Shown here one piece after another: positions 20,974-36,333 of a stretch of 36,474 nt of DNA. Below the pieces are notes generated by a model that was given only the letters and a program-made list of their open reading frames with translations, was not told the origin of the DNA and did no database searches. The number at the start of each line of letters is the position of its first letter. Positions within the stretch are counted from its first letter, which is position 1. The stretch is taken from positions 1 to 36,474 of IMG/VR virus record IMGVR_UViG_3300037461_000275; one strand, written 5' to 3'. The position numbers were made by a program, and so were the translations under genes. The DNA is from a virus.

Positions 20974-23409
20974 TCAGCGGTCCTCCGTCGTGAAGCGCGG
21001 CATGATGTTCAGTATGGTCATGGGCAGCGGTTTGTCCTGGCGGATCAGGATCCGCCCGGTTGCCGCATGGCCGCCGCGGAAAGGCTGCATGATATCGCCG
21101 GAATACAGCGGCGCCGGCTCGCCAATCGGCGTTTCCGTGTCGCGGAAGATGATCGCGTCCAGGCGGTCCGCATCCGGGCCGATCTTGCCCTGGGCCGTTC
21201 GATGGAACCGTATCACCGCCTCATGGATCCGCTTCTTTTTGCCCTGGGCCGTCCCTTCCGCCGCGCCGCCCTCCAGATCCATCGGCGACAGGTCAGAGAC
21301 ATAGGGCAGCCCGACATGGATCACCGACGCGGCCGTGTCCAGCGTGATTGCCCCGTCGGACGTGACCACCTGGTCCGGGACCGTCGCGCCGTCGGCCAGG
21401 ATCGACACCGTCTCCCCCGCCAGATGGTCCAGGCCGGAAAGGACGGTCTCCGGCGCCCCCTCGTACGACAGGCCGCAATCCACAAAAAAGGCGTCCTCCT
21501 GGTCCCCGAAATCAAAGGGCACCATCATTTCAATATAGCGGACGGCGCTGCCGTTGATCGTACGCTTGACGGACAGATAAAGATCATCCTGGGATTCCCC
21601 TGGGATCACCGCGCATGATTCGATCACGCCGTCCGTATCATGGAGCGCCCAAGCAATGACTTCCTGCTCCGGGGAGTAGGTCATGGAAAGCAGCGCGCCG
21701 TCATCCCGGACCATCCAGACAATCGGATACGGCGAGGCCATGTAAGCCCACTCGACGATCCCGCCGTCGGCAATATGTTCGGCCAGGATCGACACGTCGC
21801 GGCTTTTATAGCGATCATTCAGCAGATCGTACTGCATGGACAGGACGCGTTCGCCGTAGTTTGTCGGCTTGCCCAGGCGTTGCACATACAGCACCGACGA
21901 AAGAAAATTGACCGCCTGGATATCCGCCGATCCGTCAGGCGTTTGCGCCGCCACGCGGGCATTGTCGGCCCGCAGCGCCTCGGACGTGTTTTTCGGCCCG
22001 ATCGTCCAGGCCCCGGACACCGTCCCGATCGTCATGGTCTCCGTCGACGCCAGCCAGCGGATCGAATTGACTTTTTCCGCCTTGAGGCGGTATGTTTGCC
22101 CGTCGGCCGCCGTGTCCCCGGGCGCGAAATTCTCATAGTCCCCGACGACGGACCGCCACAGCATGAGCGGCTCGGATGCCGTCCCGGCCAGCCAAAGGGC
22201 CTGATCGTTGAACGTGATCGCTGCAGGATATCCGCGTTTGACCGAAAACGCGCCCTCCCGCCAGAACGGCGTCGGATCCGTCCCGGCCAGCTCCGTTTTG
22301 ACGGTTGCCGTGACCGAGGTTGACGTCGTGTATTCCGTGATCTCGACGTAACCCCAATCCTCGCCGCATTTTATCCGCCAGAAAGAGCCCTCATGCGCCT
22401 CCTCGAAGGTCGCCGCCGTGGCCGTCAGCGTGATGGTCCCCGTCCTGCCCGACGGCGTCAGCAGCGCCGGCGTCTCGATCTCGTAGATCTCCACCAGGTC
22501 GATGTACCAGGTCCCCGAGGATCCCGTCGCGTTTGTGAAGGCCACATAGGCGCCGGTCCCGCCGGCCGCCTCCTGCCAGAAATACTCGTACTCCGTCCAA
22601 TCGTTGTAAGGGACGGATGAAATGCTTTTTGTCGCGTTGTAACCGCTGTCGTCCCCCTTGCGGATCGATATCTTAAAGTTTTGTGTCGCCGTGTAGACGC
22701 GCACGCGCACCCGGTAGAGCTTGCCCGTTACCGTTGTGAAGGCCGTGGTCTTGACCCCTTCGCCGTCGGCATCAATGGTGAACTTGCGGGAATAGGCGCC
22801 ATGATAGGCCTGTTCATTGCTGCGCGCCTGGGTCGTCGGCGTCCCGACGGACGCCCAGCCGGTGTTTTCCTCGCAATCCCCGTCCGTACAGAGATTTCCG
22901 CCGACGTCGTCGTAAACATTCTCGTCCCGATAGGGGCCGTCCAAAAAGACAATCGGCGCGATCGTCCAATCGTCATGATCCGCGCGCGTCAGCTTTTGCG
23001 GCGGATAGTCCGGATGGACCAGGTAAAGCGTGTCGGCGTCCTGGACATATTTGATTTTTGGCAGATCCGCGACGGCATACGGCGTCGCCAGCTCGTACGG
23101 GTCCCCGGAATCGTCGACGACCAGGGCGCCGTCCTTGTAGACGCGCATATACTCGTCGCCAAACTCCAGGATATAGGCCTGGGCGACGTTGAACTCAAAC
23201 GGGAAAAGCCGGACGCGGTCCGCCGGCGTCTTTGTCTCCCCGATGAAATAAGTCCCTGGCCGGCGCTCCGCCGGGCCATGCACCAGCGGGACGAAATTTT
23301 TGCACGTCCGGCATGCGTTCGGATACTTCTCCAGGTCGACGCGCCCGTACAGGCGCGGGCTCCACTCGCCGCTGTTAAAGCTCGTTATGATCGGGGATAC
23401 CCTGGGCAT
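20974..23409 (-). CDS. Tail tubular protein B / nozzle (T7 gp12-like), 811 aa
   Basis: N-terminal ITSFNSGEWSPRLYGRVDLEKYPNACRTCKNFVPLVHGPAERRPG parallels T7 gp12 IKNLKGGISQQPDILRYPDQGSRQVNGWSSETEGLQKRPP. Follows the gp11-like gene with a TAATG overlap. Confidence 0.7.
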   Translation of the reverse strand: MPRVSPIITSFNSGEWSPRLYGRVDLEKYPNACRTCKNFVPLVHGPAERRPGTYFIGETKTPADRVRLFPFEFNVAQAYILEFGDEYMRVYKDGALVVDDSGDPYELATPYAVADLPKIKYVQDADTLYLVHPDYPPQKLTRADHDDWTIAPIVFLDGPYRDENVYDDVGGNLCTDGDCEENTGWASVGTPTTQARSNEQAYHGAYSRKFTIDADGEGVKTTAFTTVTGKLYRVRVRVYTATQNFKISIRKGDDSGYNATKSISSVPYNDWTEYEYFWQEAAGGTGAYVAFTNATGSSGTWYIDLVEIYEIETPALLTPSGRTGTITLTATAATFEEAHEGSFWRIKCGEDWGYVEITEYTTSTSVTATVKTELAGTDPTPFWREGAFSVKRGYPAAITFNDQALWLAGTASEPLMLWRSVVGDYENFAPGDTAADGQTYRLKAEKVNSIRWLASTETMTIGTVSGAWTIGPKNTSEALRADNARVAAQTPDGSADIQAVNFLSSVLYVQRLGKPTNYGERVLSMQYDLLNDRYKSRDVSILAEHIADGGIVEWAYMASPYPIVWMVRDDGALLSMTYSPEQEVIAWALHDTDGVIESCAVIPGESQDDLYLSVKRTINGSAVRYIEMMVPFDFGDQEDAFFVDCGLSYEGAPETVLSGLDHLAGETVSILADGATVPDQVVTSDGAITLDTAASVIHVGLPYVSDLSPMDLEGGAAEGTAQGKKKRIHEAVIRFHRTAQGKIGPDADRLDAIIFRDTETPIGEPAPLYSGDIMQPFRGGHAATGRILIRQDKPLPMTILNIMPRFTTEDR

Positions 23410-25772: not shown

Positions 25773-26636
25773 TTAACCCTCCCAGGCCTGGACCTCGACA
25801 ACGCCCTTTTCATCCATCCGGGTCGCGCCGATATTCATCCCGCAATAAACCTGGGTCGAATAGTTTTTGTCCGCGCGCTCGGATACCCTTGTGATGACGT
25901 CCGTCCCGACGCCCACCAGGATTGAATTCTTGCTGTACGCCAGGCAGGACCGCACGCTGGACGCCACCGCCAGGCGCTCCGTCCGGATGAACTTGAAGCC
26001 CATAAACGTGTCAAGCTGCCCCTGGACCAGGGCCTTGACCGTGTTGTAATCGGCCGACTTGACCTCCGTCACCTGGAGCAGGACGGCCAGCTGTTTCGCG
26101 TTGAGGATAAAGTATCGCTCCTCGTCGGGATCGTTTTCCGCCGCGTCCAGGATCTCCTTTGCGCTTGCCAGCTTTGCCAGCGACAGACCGGCGGATCCGT
26201 GGGCAATGCGATATGACGACGTGTCAAACGTGTAGCTTGACGATCCGTCGACGCCCCCGTATGCCGTTGCCAGGGCCGCCAAAATGATCGCGTCGTCGAT
26301 GGCGCGATTCATTGCCGCCACGGCATTGACGACGTACTTGCTGGTGGGATCCGTGATCAGCGCCGCCCGGTCGAAAATGTCGATGAGGTCCGCCCAATCG
26401 TACGGGCTCATGGACACCCGGCGCCGGACGTGCGGCGTGGAGACGAGCGGCGTATCGCCGTGGCGCGTGGTGCGCTTGACGGCCGCCGTCGCATCGATTT
26501 GGTCGAAAAATCCGTACTCGCCCTGGACGCTTTCCTCCCGGACAGCCCTCCTCAGACGAGACGCCTTCTGCTGCTGCAGCAGTACGATATTGTCGTTATA
26601 CTGCCGCACCATTGCGGTTGTAATTTCAAAACTCAT
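25773..26636 (-). CDS. Major capsid protein
   Basis: 287 aa from the ATG at 26636 (RBS GGAGGT). Its position after the scaffold and its composition and length fit HK97-fold podovirus MCPs. Confidence 0.8.
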   Translation of the reverse strand: MSFEITTAMVRQYNDNIVLLQQQKASRLRRAVREESVQGEYGFFDQIDATAAVKRTTRHGDTPLVSTPHVRRRVSMSPYDWADLIDIFDRAALITDPTSKYVVNAVAAMNRAIDDAIILAALATAYGGVDGSSSYTFDTSSYRIAHGSAGLSLAKLASAKEILDAAENDPDEERYFILNAKQLAVLLQVTEVKSADYNTVKALVQGQLDTFMGFKFIRTERLAVASSVRSCLAYSKNSILVGVGTDVITRVSERADKNYSTQVYCGMNIGATRMDEKGVVEVQAWEG

Positions 26637-26780
26637 GGCAACCTCCAAAATTTGTTGACTTTACAATGGGTTATTCGCACTCGTTCTGCGATTGCCCGTT
26701 GCCGGATCGCTTGCCTTCGGCCGCTTTCCGGATCTCCAATTCATGAAGATTGCCCGGTTTTGTGTTGCCCCCGGTCGATT

Positions 26781-27690: not shown

Positions 27691-27979
27691 TGCCTGTTAC
27701 CTCCTTGATTGAATTCATGTTGCCGTCCCGGCGCACCATGCCCAGGATATACAAAACGACGTTGCGGCTCCCCTCGTTGACCAGGGCAACCTCCACTTTG
27801 TCCACCGCCGGATCGAACGTCGGCCCGACGAAACAAAACTGATTGGCCAGGTCGTCCAGGACGATCTTTCCGTATTCCGTCCCGAACACTTGCCGGTATG
27901 CCGCGAGGATCTGTTTCTCCCGGCGCTGCGCGTCCCGTACATCGACGAGCCTGGAGTATATGCGCTTGAAGATCTCCAT
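27683..27979 (-). CDS. Small conserved protein downstream of the portal (Bbp19-like, tentative)
   Basis: 98 aa. FGTEYGKIVLDDLANQFCF...EGSRNVVLYILGM resembles the small ORF that follows the portal in BPP-1-like podoviruses. TAATG overlap with the portal gene. Confidence 0.6.
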   Translation of the reverse strand: MEIFKRIYSRLVDVRDAQRREKQILAAYRQVFGTEYGKIVLDDLANQFCFVGPTFDPAVDKVEVALVNEGSRNVVLYILGMVRRDGNMNSIKEVTGNE

Positions 27980-29619
27980 TATTTAGCCCCTCCGCCCATC
28001 ATGTCCAGCATGGAGCCCTTTTCGATTGCCTTGCCCGGCGGGACAGCCTTGACCATTTCGCCCAGGGCCGCGACTTGCTGCTGCTGCTGCTGGATCTCCG
28101 CGCGCTGCTGCCTTTTTTCCAGAACGCGCTCATCCGAGGCGATAAAGTCCTCAGAGACGCCCAGGCGGCGCAGGATCCCGACGGCCGCTTTGTCGGTTTC
28201 CACCACGTCCACAACCTCCGGCGCAAAGGTGGACATGCCGCCGACGATCTCGAGCCCCTGGGTTATGGCCTGGACCTCGCCGAACCGCATGGCCATTGCC
28301 AGCCGGCCGGTATATTGGATGGAAAGACCGGATCCGACCAGCGCGTCCGGGACCTGGCCCATGTAGCCCAGCCGGAACATGATCCAGAACGTCCGCTCCA
28401 GCAGCCGGCCCAGGTACTCCTTTTGGATCCGCCCCAGGGCCGCCCCCAGGTGCAGTTGCGCCTGTTCCGCGCGTTTGGAGATCTCATAGGCCGTACGTTG
28501 TGGATCGTCCGCACCCAGCCAGGCGAAAAAGTCATGGAAGAAATGCGCCGCGATCACTTGCCGGCGGTGCTCCTCGTATTCCAGGGCCAGCCGGTATTTG
28601 TCCGGCGTGTAGAGCGGCTCCGGCTTTGCCCCCGGCTTCGAGTATGTTATTCCTCCCGGCGTTTGGCGGATCGTTGACAGCGCCATTTCCATCGGCGCGA
28701 CCAGCGGCGGCCGGACGATAAGCTGCTGGGCCTTGATATCCTCCTCGCTCATCTTGTTGAGCATCTTGATATCCGCCAGCGCCCGCATGCCTGGGGAGTA
28801 GCCGTATTCCTCCTCGTCGCGCGGCTCCCAGCGCGGGACGGCGTACGGAAACTCCTCGTAACCCGACTCCTCCAGGATGTTGCCGCCGTCACGTTCGACG
28901 TAAGTTGACACATAGGGCATATTCAGCGCGCCGACCTTGCGCCGCATTTCACGGATCCGCCGGTCGAAAAACCATTGCTGGTCCTCGCGCTCGTACGCGG
29001 CATGGATGATATCAACCTCATGCGCCGGCGTCCTTTCGGCGATCCTCTGGATCCTGTCCGACGCCGTCTTTGGCCATTTCTTGACGACCCTCCGGGCGCT
29101 CATGCGCTCCTGCCGGAAAACAACATCGACCATCCGGTCCTGGTCCTCCATGATGGCGCAGCGCGCCGGCGAGAAGGCCGACAGCGCCAGGACGTTCTTT
29201 TTGCCCTCGCCGATATACAGCGGCGCCGTCCCGGCCCAGCCCAGGTTATGAAACACCTGGGGCGCGGTCATGCCGTTATTGGACTCGTTGAGGCAATCGT
29301 GCATGCGCTCCGTACAATCGCGCAGCCAGCGCTTAACGTCATTGCGCCGGCCGACGGTCTTGTCTTTTGCCTGGAGCTCAAACCATTGCGCCGCCGCGCT
29401 CATGACGTTCCCGTACATGCCGGACGCAAACGTCGTGAGGCACTTCATCCCCCAGGAGTCGTATATTTGCCGGCTGTGCTTTGACCCCAGGGTTTGATGC
29501 GTGACCACGTTCGCGCCGGCCGGATTGATGAACTCCGCGACCTCCTGGATATGCGTCTTGTATGTCCCCTTGCGGCCGTCCAGCTCGTCGTAGCGCTTGA
29601 CCAGGTCCATGCCGTTCAT
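27979..29619 (-). CDS. Portal (head-to-tail connector, T7 gp8-like)
   Basis: 546 aa. YEEFPYAVPRWEPRDEEEYGYSPGMRALADIKMLNKMSEEDIKAQ parallels T7 gp8 YIPIRMVRLDGESYGRSYIEEYLGDLRSLENLQEAIVK. Gln-rich C-terminus as in gp8. Confidence 0.9.
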   Translation of the reverse strand: MNGMDLVKRYDELDGRKGTYKTHIQEVAEFINPAGANVVTHQTLGSKHSRQIYDSWGMKCLTTFASGMYGNVMSAAAQWFELQAKDKTVGRRNDVKRWLRDCTERMHDCLNESNNGMTAPQVFHNLGWAGTAPLYIGEGKKNVLALSAFSPARCAIMEDQDRMVDVVFRQERMSARRVVKKWPKTASDRIQRIAERTPAHEVDIIHAAYEREDQQWFFDRRIREMRRKVGALNMPYVSTYVERDGGNILEESGYEEFPYAVPRWEPRDEEEYGYSPGMRALADIKMLNKMSEEDIKAQQLIVRPPLVAPMEMALSTIRQTPGGITYSKPGAKPEPLYTPDKYRLALEYEEHRRQVIAAHFFHDFFAWLGADDPQRTAYEISKRAEQAQLHLGAALGRIQKEYLGRLLERTFWIMFRLGYMGQVPDALVGSGLSIQYTGRLAMAMRFGEVQAITQGLEIVGGMSTFAPEVVDVVETDKAAVGILRRLGVSEDFIASDERVLEKRQQRAEIQQQQQQVAALGEMVKAVPPGKAIEKGSMLDMMGGGAK

Positions 29620-29989: not shown

Positions 29990-31663
29990 CTAACCTCCGA
30001 ATGGATTGAAATCCGCCGCCTGTCCGCCCCTGTCCGGCGAGGCCGGGACCTGGGCATAAGGCACGCGCCCCAGCGGATCGTACGACTCCGCCATGCCGGC
30101 CGGCCGCTGATTGTCCCACCAGGACCGCCCGGTCGAAAACGAGATCCCGATCCTTGACGCAGCCAGCAGCATGTACGCCGTCGCATGCCGGTAATGATCC
30201 GGCCCGATGTCTTTATATTCAGACACGCGGCCGCCGTCCGGCTTTTCCACCAGGACCTTAACGACGTTGCAAACCTCCGTCGCATACTGCTCCAGCTCTG
30301 AATTCAGCCGCGGGATCTCAAACCGGCCCGGCGCCATGACCGCGGTATGGACCCGATCCAGGCACTCCGTCCGGTTGATCGTGACCAGGCCCTCCTCCAG
30401 ATCCCAGCGCGCGTCGCCGCGTTGCCGCTCGACGTAGAAGGCCAGGAAGATCTCGTAAGGCTCCGCCTTTTGAAACTCGCGTGCCTTGTGCAGCTCTGGA
30501 CGCTGGTCGATCACCGCAGACTGTACGTTAAACCTGGCCGCGATATCATGGACGTCCGTCCAATCCTGGACGCGCCCGGCAAATGCGATCTTTGTCAGGC
30601 CGGCGGACGGCCGATAACCAACGACGACGTGCAGCGTGTTCCCGACGTCGACGCCCATGGCACACGGCCCGTTATGCCGCGTGTCCATCGCATCCTGGCC
30701 GATGCAGCGGTAAACGTCCTGGATTGTGAGGCGATTCGCGGCGTCGACGTACGCCCGGGCCAGCTTTGAATTGTAAAATACCTGGCGCTCCGCCGGCTGC
30801 AGCTCGTTGAGGCGCTCAAACTCATTCAGCAGCGCCGTCAGGTCGACGTAGCCGCTGCAGAGCTGGCTCATGAGCCGGCCGCGGCAATCCTTGACCTGGG
30901 GCGCTTGCGCCACCCAGCGGCCGTCGGCCGGATGGATCTCCCGGCCGCAATGGACACAGGCCCGGAAAACGGTCCCGTCCCGGCGCCTGGAGAGACAACG
31001 CGGGAACTCCAGCTCCATGACCGTGTCGTGGCGGCAGCGGTCGCAGCGGATCATCCAAACGTTCTGATCGCTGGCCTTGTACGCCGCGTCTATCCCGTAC
31101 CCGGGGACCGTCGGCGTGCTTAATTTGTGCTCCTCTTTCACGTTCGAATGGGCAAACCGTTCCCTGGCCAGCGGGATCATGGCCTGGTCCATTTCGTCAA
31201 ATTCGTCATAGACGATCCGGTCGACCGGGATGGATTTCAGTTTTGAGCTTGTTTTTGCGAGCCCTTCGATCTTTTGAGACGCGCGGGCGCCGCGCAGATA
31301 CAACATGGCCTTGCCGATCCGCTTGATGTTTGTGGCGTCCGTCGATTTGATATAGGCCCCGATATGGCCCGGGTTTTTGTCGATGAGGGAATTGAAGCGC
31401 GCTTTTGCGAAATCCGAGACGTCGTCGGCCGTCGGGAATAGATACAGCGTCCCCTGGGGCAGCCTGTCATGGATCATGGAGTGGATTGTCTTGAGCGCAG
31501 CCGCCTCCGTGAAGCCCATTTGTGAGCCCTTCACGTCGACCTGGTTTGGATGTTGATCCCGCATGACTTCGGCAAGGTACTCATGCCGCTCATGCGCAAA
31601 CGCGCCGGCGGCCAGCTGGATCCCGTTGTGATAGCACCAGTACCACGGATCCGTGGCCCTCAT
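29990..31663 (-). CDS. terL: Terminase large subunit (lambda GpA-like)
   Basis: Walker A-like VKGSQMGFTE and Walker B IVYDEFDEMD. Zn-ribbon-like CDRCRHDT...CVHCGREIHP is typical of GpA-family terminases. The ATG at 31663 lies 16 nt after the terS stop. Confidence 0.9.
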   Translation of the reverse strand: MRATDPWYWCYHNGIQLAAGAFAHERHEYLAEVMRDQHPNQVDVKGSQMGFTEAAALKTIHSMIHDRLPQGTLYLFPTADDVSDFAKARFNSLIDKNPGHIGAYIKSTDATNIKRIGKAMLYLRGARASQKIEGLAKTSSKLKSIPVDRIVYDEFDEMDQAMIPLARERFAHSNVKEEHKLSTPTVPGYGIDAAYKASDQNVWMIRCDRCRHDTVMELEFPRCLSRRRDGTVFRACVHCGREIHPADGRWVAQAPQVKDCRGRLMSQLCSGYVDLTALLNEFERLNELQPAERQVFYNSKLARAYVDAANRLTIQDVYRCIGQDAMDTRHNGPCAMGVDVGNTLHVVVGYRPSAGLTKIAFAGRVQDWTDVHDIAARFNVQSAVIDQRPELHKAREFQKAEPYEIFLAFYVERQRGDARWDLEEGLVTINRTECLDRVHTAVMAPGRFEIPRLNSELEQYATEVCNVVKVLVEKPDGGRVSEYKDIGPDHYRHATAYMLLAASRIGISFSTGRSWWDNQRPAGMAESYDPLGRVPYAQVPASPDRGGQAADFNPFGG

Positions 31664-31679
31664 CTTCGCCGGCGAAAGA

Positions 31680-32126
31680 TCAACCTTTGCCGCGTCGCTC
31701 TTTTTTGGTTTTGCTTTCAATCTGCTTTTGGATCTCCCTGCTGGCTTGCAGCAACAGCTCCCGCTCCTCCGGATCAATGTCATTGACCGACAGCGGCGTC
31801 GTGAAGGCCAGCTCATGCTTTTCGCTGGGATACAGCCCCAGGAGCTTCTGAGCGTCCATCCTGGCCCGTTGCCGGACGTCCCAGGCGATCACATCGAAGC
31901 CGACGACCGACTCCTCGTAGCCGTCCGCAATGATGGTTATCCGCGGATTTTGTGCATGGATGCCTCCCTTGATCTTGACGATCTTCGTCTCGTTTGCCGC
32001 GAGCTCCAGCTTGAGGTCCTGGGCAAGGCGTTCGATCGTAATGCCTTGTGTGGCCAGGGCCTCAAACATCGGAGCCGCGAGATATTTAAGCGCTGAATCA
32101 TCCATTTGTGGACGATTAAAGCACAT
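31680..32126 (-). CDS. terS: Terminase small subunit (candidate)
   Basis: Lies directly upstream of terL. C-terminal RQRARMDAQKLLGLYPSEKHE resembles the conserved TerS helix. The start is ATG 32126 or 32105. Confidence 0.6.
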   Translation of the reverse strand: MCFNRPQMDDSALKYLAAPMFEALATQGITIERLAQDLKLELAANETKIVKIKGGIHAQNPRITIIADGYEESVVGFDVIAWDVRQRARMDAQKLLGLYPSEKHELAFTTPLSVNDIDPEERELLLQASREIQKQIESKTKKERRGKG

Positions 32127-32145
32127 CTAAAAACGGCTTACAAAA

Positions 32146-32202
32146 GTGACATTAGGAGTGACACTGAGGAGTGACACTGAGGAGTGACACTGAGGAGTGA
32201 CA
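32146..32202. repeat. Tandem repeats GTGACATTAGGA-(GTGACACTGAGGA)x3-GTGACA upstream of terS
   Basis: GTGAC occurs at 32146, 32158, 32171, 32184 and 32197 (12/13-bp period). A sixth AGTGACA lies at 32271-32277. A7 and an AT-rich stretch follow at 32202-32260. Confidence 0.85.
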
Positions 32203-32278: not shown

Positions 32279-32497
32279 CTAAAACGCCCTTTTTTCCAGA
32301 GACTTTTTCGTCGCCCAAAATTTCAGCATGGACGGGAAGGCGCAGACCGTTTTTCGGGGCGGCCTTCCGATCTTCCGGTAGAAGATGATCCCCATGTTGG
32401 CCAGATCATCCTTGCGCCGCATCATGGTCCGCCGGTTGCAGTTGAACAGCCTCGCAATGGCCGTCCACCCCTGGATCGCGGTTTCGCTATCTCCCAT
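32279..32497 (-). CDS. Small HTH DNA-binding protein (excisionase/AlpA-like HTH; possible late regulator or Xis)
   Basis: GWTAIARLFNCNRRTMMRRKDDLANMGIIFYRKIGRPPRKTVCAFPSML fits the MerR-like HTH_17 pattern. It is the last gene before the repeat-bearing intergenic region and terS. Confidence 0.6.
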   Translation of the reverse strand: MGDSETAIQGWTAIARLFNCNRRTMMRRKDDLANMGIIFYRKIGRPPRKTVCAFPSMLKFWATKKSLEKRAF

Positions 32498-32666: not shown

Positions 32667-33511
32667 GTATGCGACCTCCTGTTTATTTCCCCCAGGATGG
32701 CGCCGAGCGACACCATGCCGGGCTTTTTATATTCTGCTGCTTTGGCCTCATGGTCCATTGCGTTGTATTTGCCATTTTCGATTGTCATGGCCGCGCCGAG
32801 ATAGGCCCCTGGCGCATGGACTGTCTTTTTGCTGTTCTTTAGCGATTCCAGGCAATGAATGATGGCTTTCGGGTTTGCCCTGATGTTGTTTTCCAGAAAC
32901 AGTTGTACCTCCCGCATGTACCTGGGATCTGGATTTTTGTTTCGGATCTCATGGAACAGGATCCCGATCTTTTGGCCCGCGCTTTTATCTTCTCCGTTCC
33001 CGTTGTTTTTTTCAGAAGGCGCTTTTTTCTTTTCAGAGTTATCAACAGGCTCATCCTCCTCCGGCGCCTTAGCTTTTATTATATTAACTTCTCTTATATT
33101 AGCTTGTGCGGGACCTTCTCCGTCATTACTCCGGACCTCCTCCGGAGTTCCTCCGGAGTTACTCCGGAGCGGTGGCGGAATCTTGGACGGCGTCTCCCGG
33201 TCCTTTCTCAGGTTTTTCTGGAATGTTTCAAACTGGTTTAATTGTAGATATTTCCGGCCGTTACATTCATAGAGAACGATCAGGCCGGCAGCCGCTATCT
33301 CCCCCAATAGCCGCTTGATTGCCCTGGTGTTTATATGGTCCAGAAGGGGAAAAAGGTCAGCCTTTATCAGGGCTGGTTCGGCCTCCATCCGGCCGTCAAC
33401 GTCCAAATAAGGGATGAGCCAGGTAAAAAACAGCCTCGCCGTGTCAGATTTTAACGCCGAGACCTTAAAACTTCGGCTTATTCGCCTCGATAATATGCGC
33501 CCCTCAGCCAT
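32663..33511 (-). CDS. Replisome organizer / replication initiator candidate
   Basis: 282 aa. N-terminal winged-helix-like domain (ARLFFTWLIPYLDVDGR...LIVLYECNGRKYLQL). A low-complexity linker DNA carries four 11-bp iterons plus an AT-rich stretch, the lambda O-like arrangement. Confidence 0.6.
   Translation of the reverse strand: MAEGRILSRRISRSFKVSALKSDTARLFFTWLIPYLDVDGRMEAEPALIKADLFPLLDHINTRAIKRLLGEIAAAGLIVLYECNGRKYLQLNQFETFQKNLRKDRETPSKIPPPLRSNSGGTPEEVRSNDGEGPAQANIREVNIIKAKAPEEDEPVDNSEKKKAPSEKNNGNGEDKSAGQKIGILFHEIRNKNPDPRYMREVQLFLENNIRANPKAIIHCLESLKNSKKTVHAPGAYLGAAMTIENGKYNAMDHEAKAAEYKKPGMVSLGAILGEINRRSHT
33068..33170. promoter_or_regulatory. Candidate origin of replication: 4 x 11-bp iterons (TCCGGA cores at 33130, 33141, 33152, 33163) next to an AT-rich segment (33068-33108)
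   Basis: ACTCCGGACCT CCTCCGGAGTT CCTCCGGAGTT ACTCCGGAGCG, followed by AGCTTTTATTATATTAACTTCTCTTATATTAGCTT. Located inside the linker-coding part of 32663..33511. Confidence 0.55.
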
Positions 33512-34083: not shown

Positions 34084-34150
34084 ATAACCCTGCCTAGCCC
34101 TGCCTCGCCCCGCCGTGCCATGCCATGCCCCGCCATGCCATGCCGCTTTA
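34084..34150 (-). repeat. Pentamer array A: TAAAGC-(GGCNN)x11-GGTTAT on the transcribed strand
   Basis: Plus strand reads ATAACC ctGCC taGCC ctGCC tcGCC ccGCC gtGCC atGCC atGCC ccGCC atGCC atGCC GCTTTA. It starts 9 nt after the stop of 34160..34756 and ends 13 nt before the AGGAGG of the next gene. Confidence 0.9.
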
Positions 34151-34159
34151 ATCTTCTTG

Positions 34160-34756
34160 CTATGCCCGCACAACATCGAACCGGCCGAGCCGGGGACGCT
34201 TTTCACAAAGACCGATGTATTTGCCGGCCGTTTCAACAATCATGACAACCGTGCGCTCATCCAACACCTGCTCGTCAATGGCAATGCTGAATAAAAATGA
34301 CCAGTTATGAAAAATTGGGCGCGTGCGCAACACCTGCTGCATCCCGACCTTGACCATAGCCTGGTGCCTGTAATTCGGATAAAATTTATCCAATTCCAAA
34401 ATAGGGATTTCGCCGTTCTGCTTGACCCTGATTTTCGTGCCGCTGTAATCCAACGGCAACCAATCCTCCATGATCATGACGCCCTGCTTGTATTGCTTCC
34501 CGTTTTTTGTTTTTTTAGCGGCGTCCCATAAGCACCGATCAAGGTTATCGCTCGGCAACGCAACAACCCCGTCATTAAGGTAAAGCCCCGCCTCCCATTC
34601 TACACGGGCGATTTCCTCAAAATCCTCATCGGTTTTTTTCCGCTTCGCTGTCAGCGCCTTCATGTGTTTCGCATAATTATTCAATGGATTTGATGCTTTA
34701 TTGCAATGAATCAACAATGGAACAATTCCAACCGCCTTAAAATTTAACTCTTTCAT
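34160..34756 (-). CDS. Hypothetical protein (198 aa) bracketed by the two pentamer arrays
   Basis: Clean ORF with RBS AAGGAG. Visibly AT-richer than the backbone. No family recognised. Confidence 0.75.
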   Translation of the reverse strand: MKELNFKAVGIVPLLIHCNKASNPLNNYAKHMKALTAKRKKTDEDFEEIARVEWEAGLYLNDGVVALPSDNLDRCLWDAAKKTKNGKQYKQGVMIMEDWLPLDYSGTKIRVKQNGEIPILELDKFYPNYRHQAMVKVGMQQVLRTRPIFHNWSFLFSIAIDEQVLDERTVVMIVETAGKYIGLCEKRPRLGRFDVVRA

Positions 34757-34854
34757 AAATTTCTCCTTGTTCGTTCGTTTTCGGCATCTTTTAAGCGTTT
34801 GTGGTTTTTATAACCCGCTTCTTTTTCCTGCCCCTTTGAACGTTTTTGAATTGG

Positions 34855-34921
34855 ATAACCCCGCCTTGCCACGCCTTGCCGGGCCGGGCCGGGCCACGCC
34901 TCGCCTCGCCGGGCCGCTTTA
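34855..34921 (-). repeat. Pentamer array B: TAAAGC-(GGCNN)x11-GGTTAT on the transcribed strand
   Basis: Plus strand reads ATAACC ccGCC ttGCC acGCC ttGCC ggGCC ggGCC ggGCC acGCC tcGCC tcGCC ggGCC GCTTTA. The TAA of the flank is the stop codon of the VRR-NUC gene. Confidence 0.9.
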
Positions 34922-35209
34922 CATTAAAAACCGATCCTGGACCCCCAGGCCGGCGATCACATCATCGATGGACCTGGCCACAAAGGCCAGGCCCCCCGCC
35001 GCGTTGACGTTGTCGATAAACCGCTGCTGATCATAACTAACCTTGCCCTTCGGCGCCTTGACCTCAATGGCCAACAGCCGGCCGCGATAGCAACCCAGGA
35101 TATCAGCGATCCCCTTGGCCCCCATCGGGCCGCCGTGGTTTTTCCAATGAAAGATCCCCAGGCTTTTAAGCAGCCCCCGGATCGCATCTGTAATTTGCCG
35201 CTCCTTCAT
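34919..35209 (-). CDS. VRR-NUC domain nuclease (PD-(D/E)XK; junction-resolvase-like)
   Basis: ATG at 35209 (MKERQITDAIR), ATGA-coupled to recT. GIADILGCYRGRLLAIEVKAPKGKVSYDQQRF contains D ... E-x-K. Confidence 0.7.
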   Translation of the reverse strand: MKERQITDAIRGLLKSLGIFHWKNHGGPMGAKGIADILGCYRGRLLAIEVKAPKGKVSYDQQRFIDNVNAAGGLAFVARSIDDVIAGLGVQDRFLM

Positions 35210-36333
35210 CCCTGCCATGCCGGGCAGCCCTCGCGTTCCGTACAGCGTTCGCAAAAGACGACGGTCATAACCGCGTGATCCTCCCTGGCCGGGCAGGGCG
35301 CCGGCGCTAATGCCTCGCCCGTCAGGGCGTCAACGGCGGCCGCTCCTTCCTGCTTTTTTGCCGGCGGCTTTTTCCTTGTTTTCAGCCAGGATGGATACAG
35401 CTTCCAGAGATCCTTGAGATCCTTGTCGCTGGCCGCAGCCGCCAGTTTGACCTCCTCGACGGTCTTTTTGTTGCCGGCCGCCACGCGGTCCAGGTACTCC
35501 TGCACCGCCTCCGGATCCGCGCCCTTCGGGATCGACGCCTCAAATTTCTCCAGCAGCGCAGCGGGATCCGCCGTCCCCTCCCCGGTTGTTTCCGCGTCGA
35601 TCACGTCCCCGGCTGTCATGCTGTCCAGCAGATCGTCCTGGGCCTCGCCGGACATGGCCCGGTCCTCCAGGGCGACGGCCCGCTGAAATTCAACGGACAG
35701 CGGCGCCAACTTCGCGTGCCGCTTGATCACGGTCTTTTTCGCCATTTCCGCCCAATCCGTCACCCAGGGACCCTCGCTTGACGCCTTCGACCGCTTGCGG
35801 ATTTTTTCGATATCGGCCGCGGTCATGAAATCAAACGAGTACCCGCCGTCCTTGTATTTGAATACAACAAACGCGCCGACGGGCTCGCCCCGGTCCCCGT
35901 TGATATACGGTTTGTGGACCAGGCTGTCCTCGATCCCGTACGTCAGCTCAAAATGGTCGCGCTCGTACACAACCTGGGTCGACACGGACTGGATCTCCCC
36001 GGTCCGCCTGGCCAGCGCCAGATAACCGCGATATCCCGGGATCAGCGTGCAGATCATCTTTCCGGACTTGTTGTCCTTGAATGGCACAAGATAAGCCTGG
36101 CCCAGGAATTGATCCGGCTCCAGGCCGAGCTGGGCGCACGTCATGACGCACGCCAGAAGGCTTTGCGGCGTACATTCCAGGAGCTTCGGCGTCCGCTGGA
36201 TCGACGTCATGGCCACGCGCAGCAGCCGGTCCGCCGTCAAATGTTTCGGCAATGCCATTTCCAGCTGCTTCCGGCTCTTGTCCAACAGTCCCCGGATATC
36301 AGCCGCCCTTTGTGTCGCTGGTGAATTCGACAT
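35206..36333 (-). CDS. recT: RecT-family single-strand annealing protein with a Cys-containing C-terminal extension
   Basis: The sequence shows RecT-like motifs: LLECTPQSLLACVMTCAQLGLEP, AYLVPF, LIPGYRGYLALARRTGEI, VVYERDHFE and KKTVIKRHAKLAPLS. RBS GAGGAGG. Confidence 0.9.
   Translation of the reverse strand: MSNSPATQRAADIRGLLDKSRKQLEMALPKHLTADRLLRVAMTSIQRTPKLLECTPQSLLACVMTCAQLGLEPDQFLGQAYLVPFKDNKSGKMICTLIPGYRGYLALARRTGEIQSVSTQVVYERDHFELTYGIEDSLVHKPYINGDRGEPVGAFVVFKYKDGGYSFDFMTAADIEKIRKRSKASSEGPWVTDWAEMAKKTVIKRHAKLAPLSVEFQRAVALEDRAMSGEAQDDLLDSMTAGDVIDAETTGEGTADPAALLEKFEASIPKGADPEAVQEYLDRVAAGNKKTVEEVKLAAAASDKDLKDLWKLYPSWLKTRKKPPAKKQEGAAAVDALTGEALAPAPCPAREDHAVMTVVFCERCTEREGCPAWQG

Follow-up and report, generated by a model that had tools for sequence, protein, structure and literature searches.

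A probable two-guide VIPR system in the early operon of an uncultivated tailed phage

Systems of the Viral Interference Programmable Repeat (VIPR) type are encoded by phages and comprise a Vipr protein of ~20 kDa, which is an ancestral RAMP, a vap accessory gene and guide RNAs termed vrRNAs (bioRxiv 10.64898/2026.04.26.720920). By definition, Vipr is a minimal homolog of RAMPs that has an RRM core, a G-loop and a thumb. The vrRNAs are located in the intergenic DNA flanking vipr and consist of 9-16 YNNGG (GGY/NN) repeats followed by a 3' tail; their NN dinucleotides can read either strand of double-stranded DNA (dsDNA) by a rule that skips one nucleotide, and no protospacer-adjacent motif (PAM) is needed. 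The systems silence competing phages, satellites or prophages, and natural ones were reported without self-target (10.64898/2026.04.26.720920). SUSP1 Vipr forms a right-handed helical filament with one protomer per repeat, and the guide studied by cryo-electron microscopy (cryo-EM) carries 12 repeats and 12 protomers; G1, G2 and Y3 of a repeat are sequestered by a pocket that accepts only pyrimidines and by H17, D177, R138, W178 and R179, and base pairing to the target is by N4N5, with the skipped base flipped out (10.64898/2026.04.26.720927). According to the same work, natural guides reach up to ~30 repeats. A structured tail (pseudoknot) has been reported for the SUSP1 clade only. Here we analyse two repeat arrays, A and B, and the genes around them in the IMG/VR virus record IMGVR_UViG_3300037461_000275, positions 1 to 36,474 (the window; 36,474 nucleotides). 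The locus is most probably a two-guide, SUSP1-like (type II-like) VIPR system carried in the early operon of a tailed phage of 36.5 kb that is uncultivated, a reading to which we assign a probability of about 0.88.

Strand reading and a regular-expression check reproduced exactly what an earlier note on this DNA had described, namely two arrays of the form TAAAGC-(GGCNN)11-GGTTAT on the minus strand, 67 nt each. Array A reads TAAAGC GGCAT GGCAT GGCGG GGCAT GGCAT GGCAC GGCGG GGCGA GGCAG GGCTA GGCAG GGTTAT, and array B reads TAAAGC GGCCC GGCGA GGCGA GGCGT GGCCC GGCCC GGCCC GGCAA GGCGT GGCAA GGCGG GGTTAT. Since GGTTA of the 3' flank counts as a unit (GGT + TA), each array holds 12 GGY/NN units, eleven with GGC and one with GGT, and Y is C in all 22 internal units of the two arrays. 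The dinucleotides of guide A are thus AT AT GG AT AT AC GG GA AG TA AG and those of guide B are CC GA GA GT CC CC CC AA GT AA GG. All 45 fixed positions (flanks and GGC) are the same in A and B, whereas the NN positions agree in 6/22 cases, about the random level. The earlier note was right in seeing the arrays as a selected, phased lattice and not a slippage microsatellite. The spacers, which it described as freely differing, are not mere filler: in the VIPR family they are the guide code.

Period-5 triplet runs of at least five units were found in the 36.5-kb window in arrays A and B only. A 6-unit GGCNN pattern with up to two mismatches gave 14 overlapping matches, every one of them within the two arrays, against an expectation of 0.01 from 100 shuffles. 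The arrays are real and under strong selection. Both are on the same strand as vipr: array B is 98 nt upstream of the gene and array A starts 9 nt past its stop codon. The distance of 13 nt between the end of array A and AGGAGG, the Shine-Dalgarno sequence of vap, and the VRR-NUC stop codon within the flank of array B were both confirmed. The GGY/NN pentamer architecture, the placement on the coding strand and the random-like NN of VIPR guides are thus all present in A and B. An ORF of 74 aa across array A was rejected as an artefact: relatives do not conserve it, and DNA repeating every 5 nt is unable to code for a repetitive protein. An Rfam gathering scan of the whole window returned 0 families.

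A small element located after vrRNA B and before the start codon of vipr, AAGC-GG-GTTAT, has the 5' flank joined to the tail without repeats. It lies inside a small hairpin (AAGCGGGUUAUAAAAACC...GCUU) and, judged by its resemblance to the arrays, might speculatively represent a guide that has collapsed, or else a signal for processing.

The ORF of 198 aa bracketed by the two arrays gave, in a PDB sequence search, a full-length match (aa 1-195) to 36pp, 'SUSP1 Vipr protein', at E=1.2e-26; with a 50-sequence family profile of the window ORF the match to 36pp reached E=2.2e-54. Its identity to SUSP2 Vipr is 32% over the full length (E=4e-34), and SUSP2 Vipr in turn shows 100% identity to the 36pp chain across the 187 residues that aligned with the window ORF. 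The AF2 model had a predicted local distance difference test (pLDDT) value of 96.3, and its best Foldseek matches in the PDB, in a library older than 36pp, were Csm3/Cas7 RAMPs of type III/VII CRISPR (E ~1e-4, TM ~0.5). The ORF matches phrog_4652 ('unknown function') at E=1e-50, and Pfam gave no match for either of the two core ORFs, vipr and vap. Alignment to SUSP2 Vipr showed that the SUSP1 RNA- and target-contact residues H17, K33, R146 (=R138) and R187 (=R179) are kept and that D177 is conservatively replaced by E185; these positions include three whose alanine substitution abolished silencing in SUSP1. The residues of the Y3 pocket differ from those of SUSP1, the changed Y3/G2 pocket having I181 and K186. 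The earlier note had not identified the binder of the arrays; the bracketed ORF itself, a Vipr/RAMP homolog, encodes a Vipr protein and is the predicted binder, with one protomer per pentamer.

The next gene, of 173 aa, shares 30% identity across 132 aa (E=4e-16) with the gene located directly downstream of vipr in SUSP2 and Alf5 (Felixounavirus), which we take to be the vap1 of the preprint. A homolog of it followed vipr in all six clade relatives looked at, with 31-80% identity, and the ORF matches phrog_5926 ('unknown'). Its AF2 model was adequate (pLDDT 81) but retrieved with Foldseek solely non-significant winged-helix regulator matches, at E>=0.45. The product is possibly a winged-helix DNA binder; the matches hint at such a fold and fit the 'predicted DNA-binding' label of type II vap, which is no proof.

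Similar arrays were sought in other viruses by scanning IMG/VR contigs with the pattern (GGCNN)8GGC only, which gave at least 120 loci, many of them with several arrays; the figures that follow for this pattern-picked set refer to the matches listed. Strict GGC runs (of at least six units) were 6-29 units long with no preference for 11, and flanks varied between contigs, yet were common to the copies within one contig. A tblastn match to the 198-aa ORF was present in 33/120 loci and a match to a hidden Markov model (HMM) of the Vipr family at E<1e-3 in 84/120. By comparison, just 130 of 50,697 phage records contain the family. Among arrays no more than 1.5 kb away from vipr, 107 were co-oriented with it and 8 opposed, and the array-gene-array layout recurs, for instance in loci L110, L009, L057, L028 and L004. 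Other loci carry tandem runs of up to 12 arrays, far from any ribosome-binding site. The remaining 36/120 loci had no Vipr-family ORF at E<1e-3; some of them are short or cut at contig ends, and orphan arrays or Vipr types of greater divergence may be present in others. At L012:1119-1163 a pure (GGCCC)9 microsatellite fits the pattern whichever strand is read, in a locus that yielded no Vipr-family ORF; it exemplifies the false positives to which vrRNA searches by pattern are open. In L080 and L032 the arrays are on the strand opposite to the Vipr homolog, L080 having six upstream arrays of 11-22 units, and this arrangement may represent a divergent-transcription architecture.

A second set of loci was picked by protein alone (L123-L134, Alf5, SUSP2 and Pseudomonas phage Medea1), and all of these relatives have GGY/NN arrays beside vipr, those of Alf5, SUSP2 and Medea1 being GGT-rich or degenerate. 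Contigs with a Vipr 53-73% identical to that of the window show an array, vipr, at least one further array, a vap homolog and sometimes more arrays; the arrays have 8-23 units each, with GGT and degenerate units frequent. The copy number of exactly 11 in the earlier note, for which freely varying numbers in homologous genomes had been named beforehand as the refutation, accordingly does not hold: 6-29 units were seen across the contigs listed and 8-23 in close relatives. Two relatives with identical Vipr, L123 and L125, differ by 3 positions in 1,297 nt, all three at NN positions of the upstream array; random placement would give this with a chance of ~(24/1297)^3, or ~6e-6. In a library of 1.84 billion proteins clustered at 50% identity, 7,123 cluster representatives matched the Vipr family when the threshold was E<=1e-3, and 1,489 when it was E<=1e-30. 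The tail GGNTATTTAY is common to array A of the window and the arrays of its closest relatives. Downstream of vipr in L123-L126 (e.g. L123:3600-4000), internal guides end in GG[AG]TATTTAY, after which a short motif resembling a hairpin, ATACGCACTnATAAAtATGCG, is conserved. This motif is absent from both window arrays, which suggests two guide classes in the clade, gene-proximal and internal.

By homology to the SUSP1 and Pseudomonas fulva systems, the arrays would be part of the operon transcript and be set free from it as RNAs of ~70-100 nt, on each of which twelve Vipr protomers would polymerise, one per pentamer. Pairs of protomers would hold G1, G2 and Y3 in protein pockets and expose N4N5, and the conserved GGC, phase and flanks would constitute the protein-binding scaffold. 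The resulting filament is expected to bind dsDNA in which the target strand matches all 11 NN pairs when each third base is passed over, with a footprint of ~33 bp, on either strand and with no PAM, and the R-loop triplex would block transcription of a competing phage, a satellite or a resident prophage, with vap enhancing the silencing. Guides A and B would differ because each specifies a different target.

The type II VIPR systems of the Escherichia phages SUSP1/SUSP2 and of the P. fulva prophage share with the window a homologous Vipr of ~200 aa (32% identity), a small vap gene, co-oriented intergenic GGY/NN arrays that flank vipr, hypervariable NN and the lack of a self-target; the 12 units per guide are likewise those of the SUSP1 cryo-EM guide. 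The differences are that arrays of the SUSP clade are mostly GGT, whereas those of the window are strictly GGC internally, and that in SUSP2 vipr and vap are 2 nt apart with arrays flanking the pair, whereas the window has an array between the two genes. SUSP1 furthermore has W178 where the window Vipr has K, and a conserved tail/pseudoknot of ~40 nt; no such tail is evident in the window, and no promoter-like sequence precedes its arrays. With the Cas7/Csm3 backbone of class 1 CRISPR, VIPR has in common the RAMP fold, a single protomer for every fixed step along the RNA and a thumb that periodically interrupts guide-target pairing; the register is 6 nt with 5 pairing bases in the former and 5 nt with 2 pairing bases in the latter, and guide information is kept inside the tandem repeat in VIPR, but in spacers between repeats in CRISPR. 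No CRISPR repeat-spacer array was found in the window (tandem-repeat scan, Rfam) and no cas genes, including cas1/cas2, in the flanking ORFs (Pfam, PADLOC), so that only the RAMP fold is common with CRISPR-Cas.

The predicted target is ATxATxGGxATxATxACxGGxGAxAGxTAxAG for guide A and CCxGAxGAxGTxCCxCCxCCxAAxGTxAAxGG for guide B, on either strand in both cases. The window itself contains no self-target with up to three mismatches. Sub-patterns of nine units of guide A had 0 matches in viral contigs, and those of guide B matched 8 loci there, six of which are one gene family at 21/22 positions (L136-L141; IMG/VR, 32-34% GC, marine myovirus-like; e.g. L138:1239-1270). The match is antisense to HLTLGGGTSSG in a conserved baseplate-like ORF of 615 aa, and the skipped bases of guide B fall on variable third codon positions of that ORF. 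With P(>=21/22) of ~3.8e-12 per position and ~1e11 positions, a rough assumed collection size, ~0.4 matches per guide would be expected. A mismatch-tolerant scan of the collected loci for targets and a scan of 351 foreign guides against the window both gave nothing significant.

Several observations weigh against the assignment to VIPR. Exact 22-position xNN patterns had 0 matches in viral, metagenome and genome collections, where matching was exact only; this absence is weak evidence, because no mismatches were allowed in these large collections. The 21/22 match of guide B is the only near-target, and we judge it to be compatible with chance because of the collection size and of the mismatch in GC content and host with a 59%-GC phage. 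The SUSP1-type pseudoknot tail of ~40 nt is not evident: only GGTTAT, or up to ~10 nt, is common, which may be a clade difference. Predicted folds of arrays and tails were no better than those of shuffles (z from -1.25 to +0.69). A scan for sigma-70-like promoters and terminators had no result that exceeded the number expected from shuffles, nor any beside the arrays on the minus strand, and with no promoter before either array, expression and release from the operon transcript are assumed. At the position of W178, the residue that in SUSP1 stacks on G2, the window Vipr has K186. Finally, the papers that define VIPR are preprints.

A further reading is that the locus belongs to a distinct VIPR subclade, embedded in the operon and tail-less. 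In such a subclade the guides, lacking a promoter of their own and a structured 3' cap, would be cut from the polycistronic early mRNA; Vipr assembled on guide A would gate translation of vap at the ribosome-binding site 13 nt away, a feedback linking guide assembly to the dosage of the accessory protein; and the strict GGC would result from a Y3 pocket of altered shape (C173->I, M72->N, W178->K). Taken jointly, we consider these proposals tentative and rather unlikely.

The earlier note had compared the arrays with the TRAP-binding RNA of Bacillus and proposed cis control of the flanking genes. TRAP-binding RNA has 9-11 (G/U)AG triplets, 2-3 nt apart, bound by a ring of the MtrB family. Such a cis-regulator, in which an 11-mer ring or similar on 11 GGC triplets governs how the bracketed genes and those downstream are translated or terminated, would agree with the position of array A before the vap Shine-Dalgarno sequence, with array B starting in the VRR-NUC stop codon and with both arrays being on the transcribed strand; loading of Vipr on a polycistronic RNA could, moreover, incidentally block the vap ribosome-binding site. 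There is also a formal likeness, as in the trp leader RNA an oligomer reads evenly spaced triplets in single-stranded RNA and leaves the spacers unread. TRAP, however, is a closed 11/12-mer ring of unrelated fold that acts by cis attenuation through (G/U)AG and spacers of 2-3 nt, whereas the window system would, by homology, be an open helical RAMP filament of variable length that reads GGY, with exact 2-nt spacers bearing targeting information, and acts in trans on DNA. The triplet here is GGC/GGT, the count is not fixed at 11, and the hypervariability of NN amid otherwise complete identity is left unexplained by cis-regulation. Tandem arrays in other loci, moreover, lie far from any ribosome-binding site. 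No TRAP domain was found by Pfam in the 7 neighbouring ORFs scanned. The TRAP analogy was rejected because of the kind of triplet, the fold of the protein and the variation in copy number, and we hold cis control of this kind to be highly improbable; the expected function is RNA-guided silencing of mobile elements in trans. Of the oligomeric binder foreseen in the earlier note as a GGC-specific ring or helix, the helical, GGC-reading form is supported by homology to the SUSP1 filament, most likely on RNA, and the ring is not. The note knew of no phage element of this form, but one is described in bioRxiv 10.64898/2026.04.26.720920 and 10.64898/2026.04.26.720927, preprints of 2026 that are too recent to have been available to it.

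A VIPR origin with subsequent decay, in which targeting has been lost or the guides have no extant target, is in our view very unlikely. It would be in line with the failure to find a target in any collection, with the presence of two guides only and no structured tail, and with the possible collapsed array upstream of vipr. Against this, the arrays are unusually perfect, with 11/11 GGC and no degenerate unit, although relatives tolerate degeneracy; the vipr and vap ORFs are intact and key Vipr residues conserved; and the target search has the limited weight stated above. Extremely improbable is a role independent of protein, be it as two-tetrad RNA or DNA G-quadruplexes (G4s) from (GG-N3)n, serving as an mRNA stabiliser or pause site, or as a dsDNA wrapping or iteron site. 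The GG-N3 spacing does formally fit two-tier G4s, and the arrays are at gene ends, like REP-type stabilisers. But position 3 is restricted to a pyrimidine, which G4s do not need, location and strand are strongly tied to one family of RNA-binding proteins, the guanines are individually bound in protein pockets in the solved SUSP1 homolog, no secondary structure exceeded the shuffles, and the actual iteron-like repeats of the window are elsewhere, at 33111-33169 and 32145-32202. The reading as a two-guide VIPR system is the one retained here.

The window is a contig of a tailed-phage genome with 59% GC and all genes on the minus strand (Table 1). The order of the early module is RecT, VRR-NUC, vrRNA B, vipr, vrRNA A, vap and replication initiator. 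No tRNAs were present in the window, and no nucleotide match to it was obtained in 50,697 phage records; the best TerL match was 26% identical, and there is no cultured relative.

Table 1. Coordinates of the two arrays, the vipr and vap genes and other features of the window
Feature	Position	Strand	Remarks
vrRNA A	34084..34150	minus	Between vipr and vap; sequence pattern
vrRNA A, 5' flank TAAAGC	34145-34150	minus	
vrRNA A, eleven GGCNN units	34090-34144	minus	
vrRNA A, 12th unit GGTTA	34085-34089	minus	Tail sequence GGTTATTTAC
vrRNA B	34855..34921	minus	Upstream of vipr and co-oriented with it; sequence pattern
vrRNA B, 5' flank TAAAGC	34916-34921	minus	Its TAA is the VRR-NUC stop codon
vrRNA B, eleven GGCNN units	34861-34915	minus	
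vrRNA B, 12th unit GGTTA	34856-34860	minus	Opens the short common 3' tail GGTTAT
Possible collapsed or 'empty' array, AAGC-GG-GTTAT	34810..34820	minus	By sequence resemblance; AAGCGGGTTAT
vipr, 198 aa	34160..34756	minus	Vipr homolog, minimal Cas7-like RAMP
vap, 173 aa	33537..34058	minus	vap1-like Vipr-accessory protein
RecT	35206-36333	minus	
VRR-NUC ORF	34919-35254	minus	Pfam PF08774
Replication initiator, 282 aa	32663-33511	minus	
11-bp repeat	33111-33169		Inside the replication-initiator ORF
13-bp tandem repeat	32145-32202		Intergenic
TerL	29990-31816	minus	
Portal-like protein	27979-29619	minus	phrog_332, labelled head-tail adaptor
Major head protein	25773-26648	minus	
Tail protein	20974-23409	minus	
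Exonuclease-like ORF	4-855	minus	

The exonuclease-like ORF and RecT are at opposite ends of the contig, and would be neighbours forming an exo/RecT recombination pair should the contig turn out to be a complete genome in circular permutation. The 13-bp tandem repeat of 4.5 copies (minus-strand sequence GTCACTCCTCAGT) is located between an ORF of 72 aa (32279-32497) and the ORF of 148 aa that precedes TerL, and may offer a series of binding sites to a regulator or to the small terminase (a pac-like site). The 11-bp repeat with the palindrome TCCGGA (CTCCGGAGTAA / CTCCGGAGGAA) looks like an iteron-type origin within the initiator gene, as in lambda O.

The finding adds an uncultivated phage of 59% GC to the VIPR catalogue and leaves the known mechanism unchanged. 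It shows that vrRNA guides can be picked out de novo from sequence alone, and that a bare DNA pattern retrieves VIPR loci, with ~70% co-occurrence of Vipr among the matches listed. In addition, phrog_4652 can be named Vipr and phrog_5926 vap1-like. The clade of the window has a guide between vipr and vap and no evident SUSP1-type tail; these traits, the strict GGC and the lack of a promoter of the guides' own are variations within the VIPR family.

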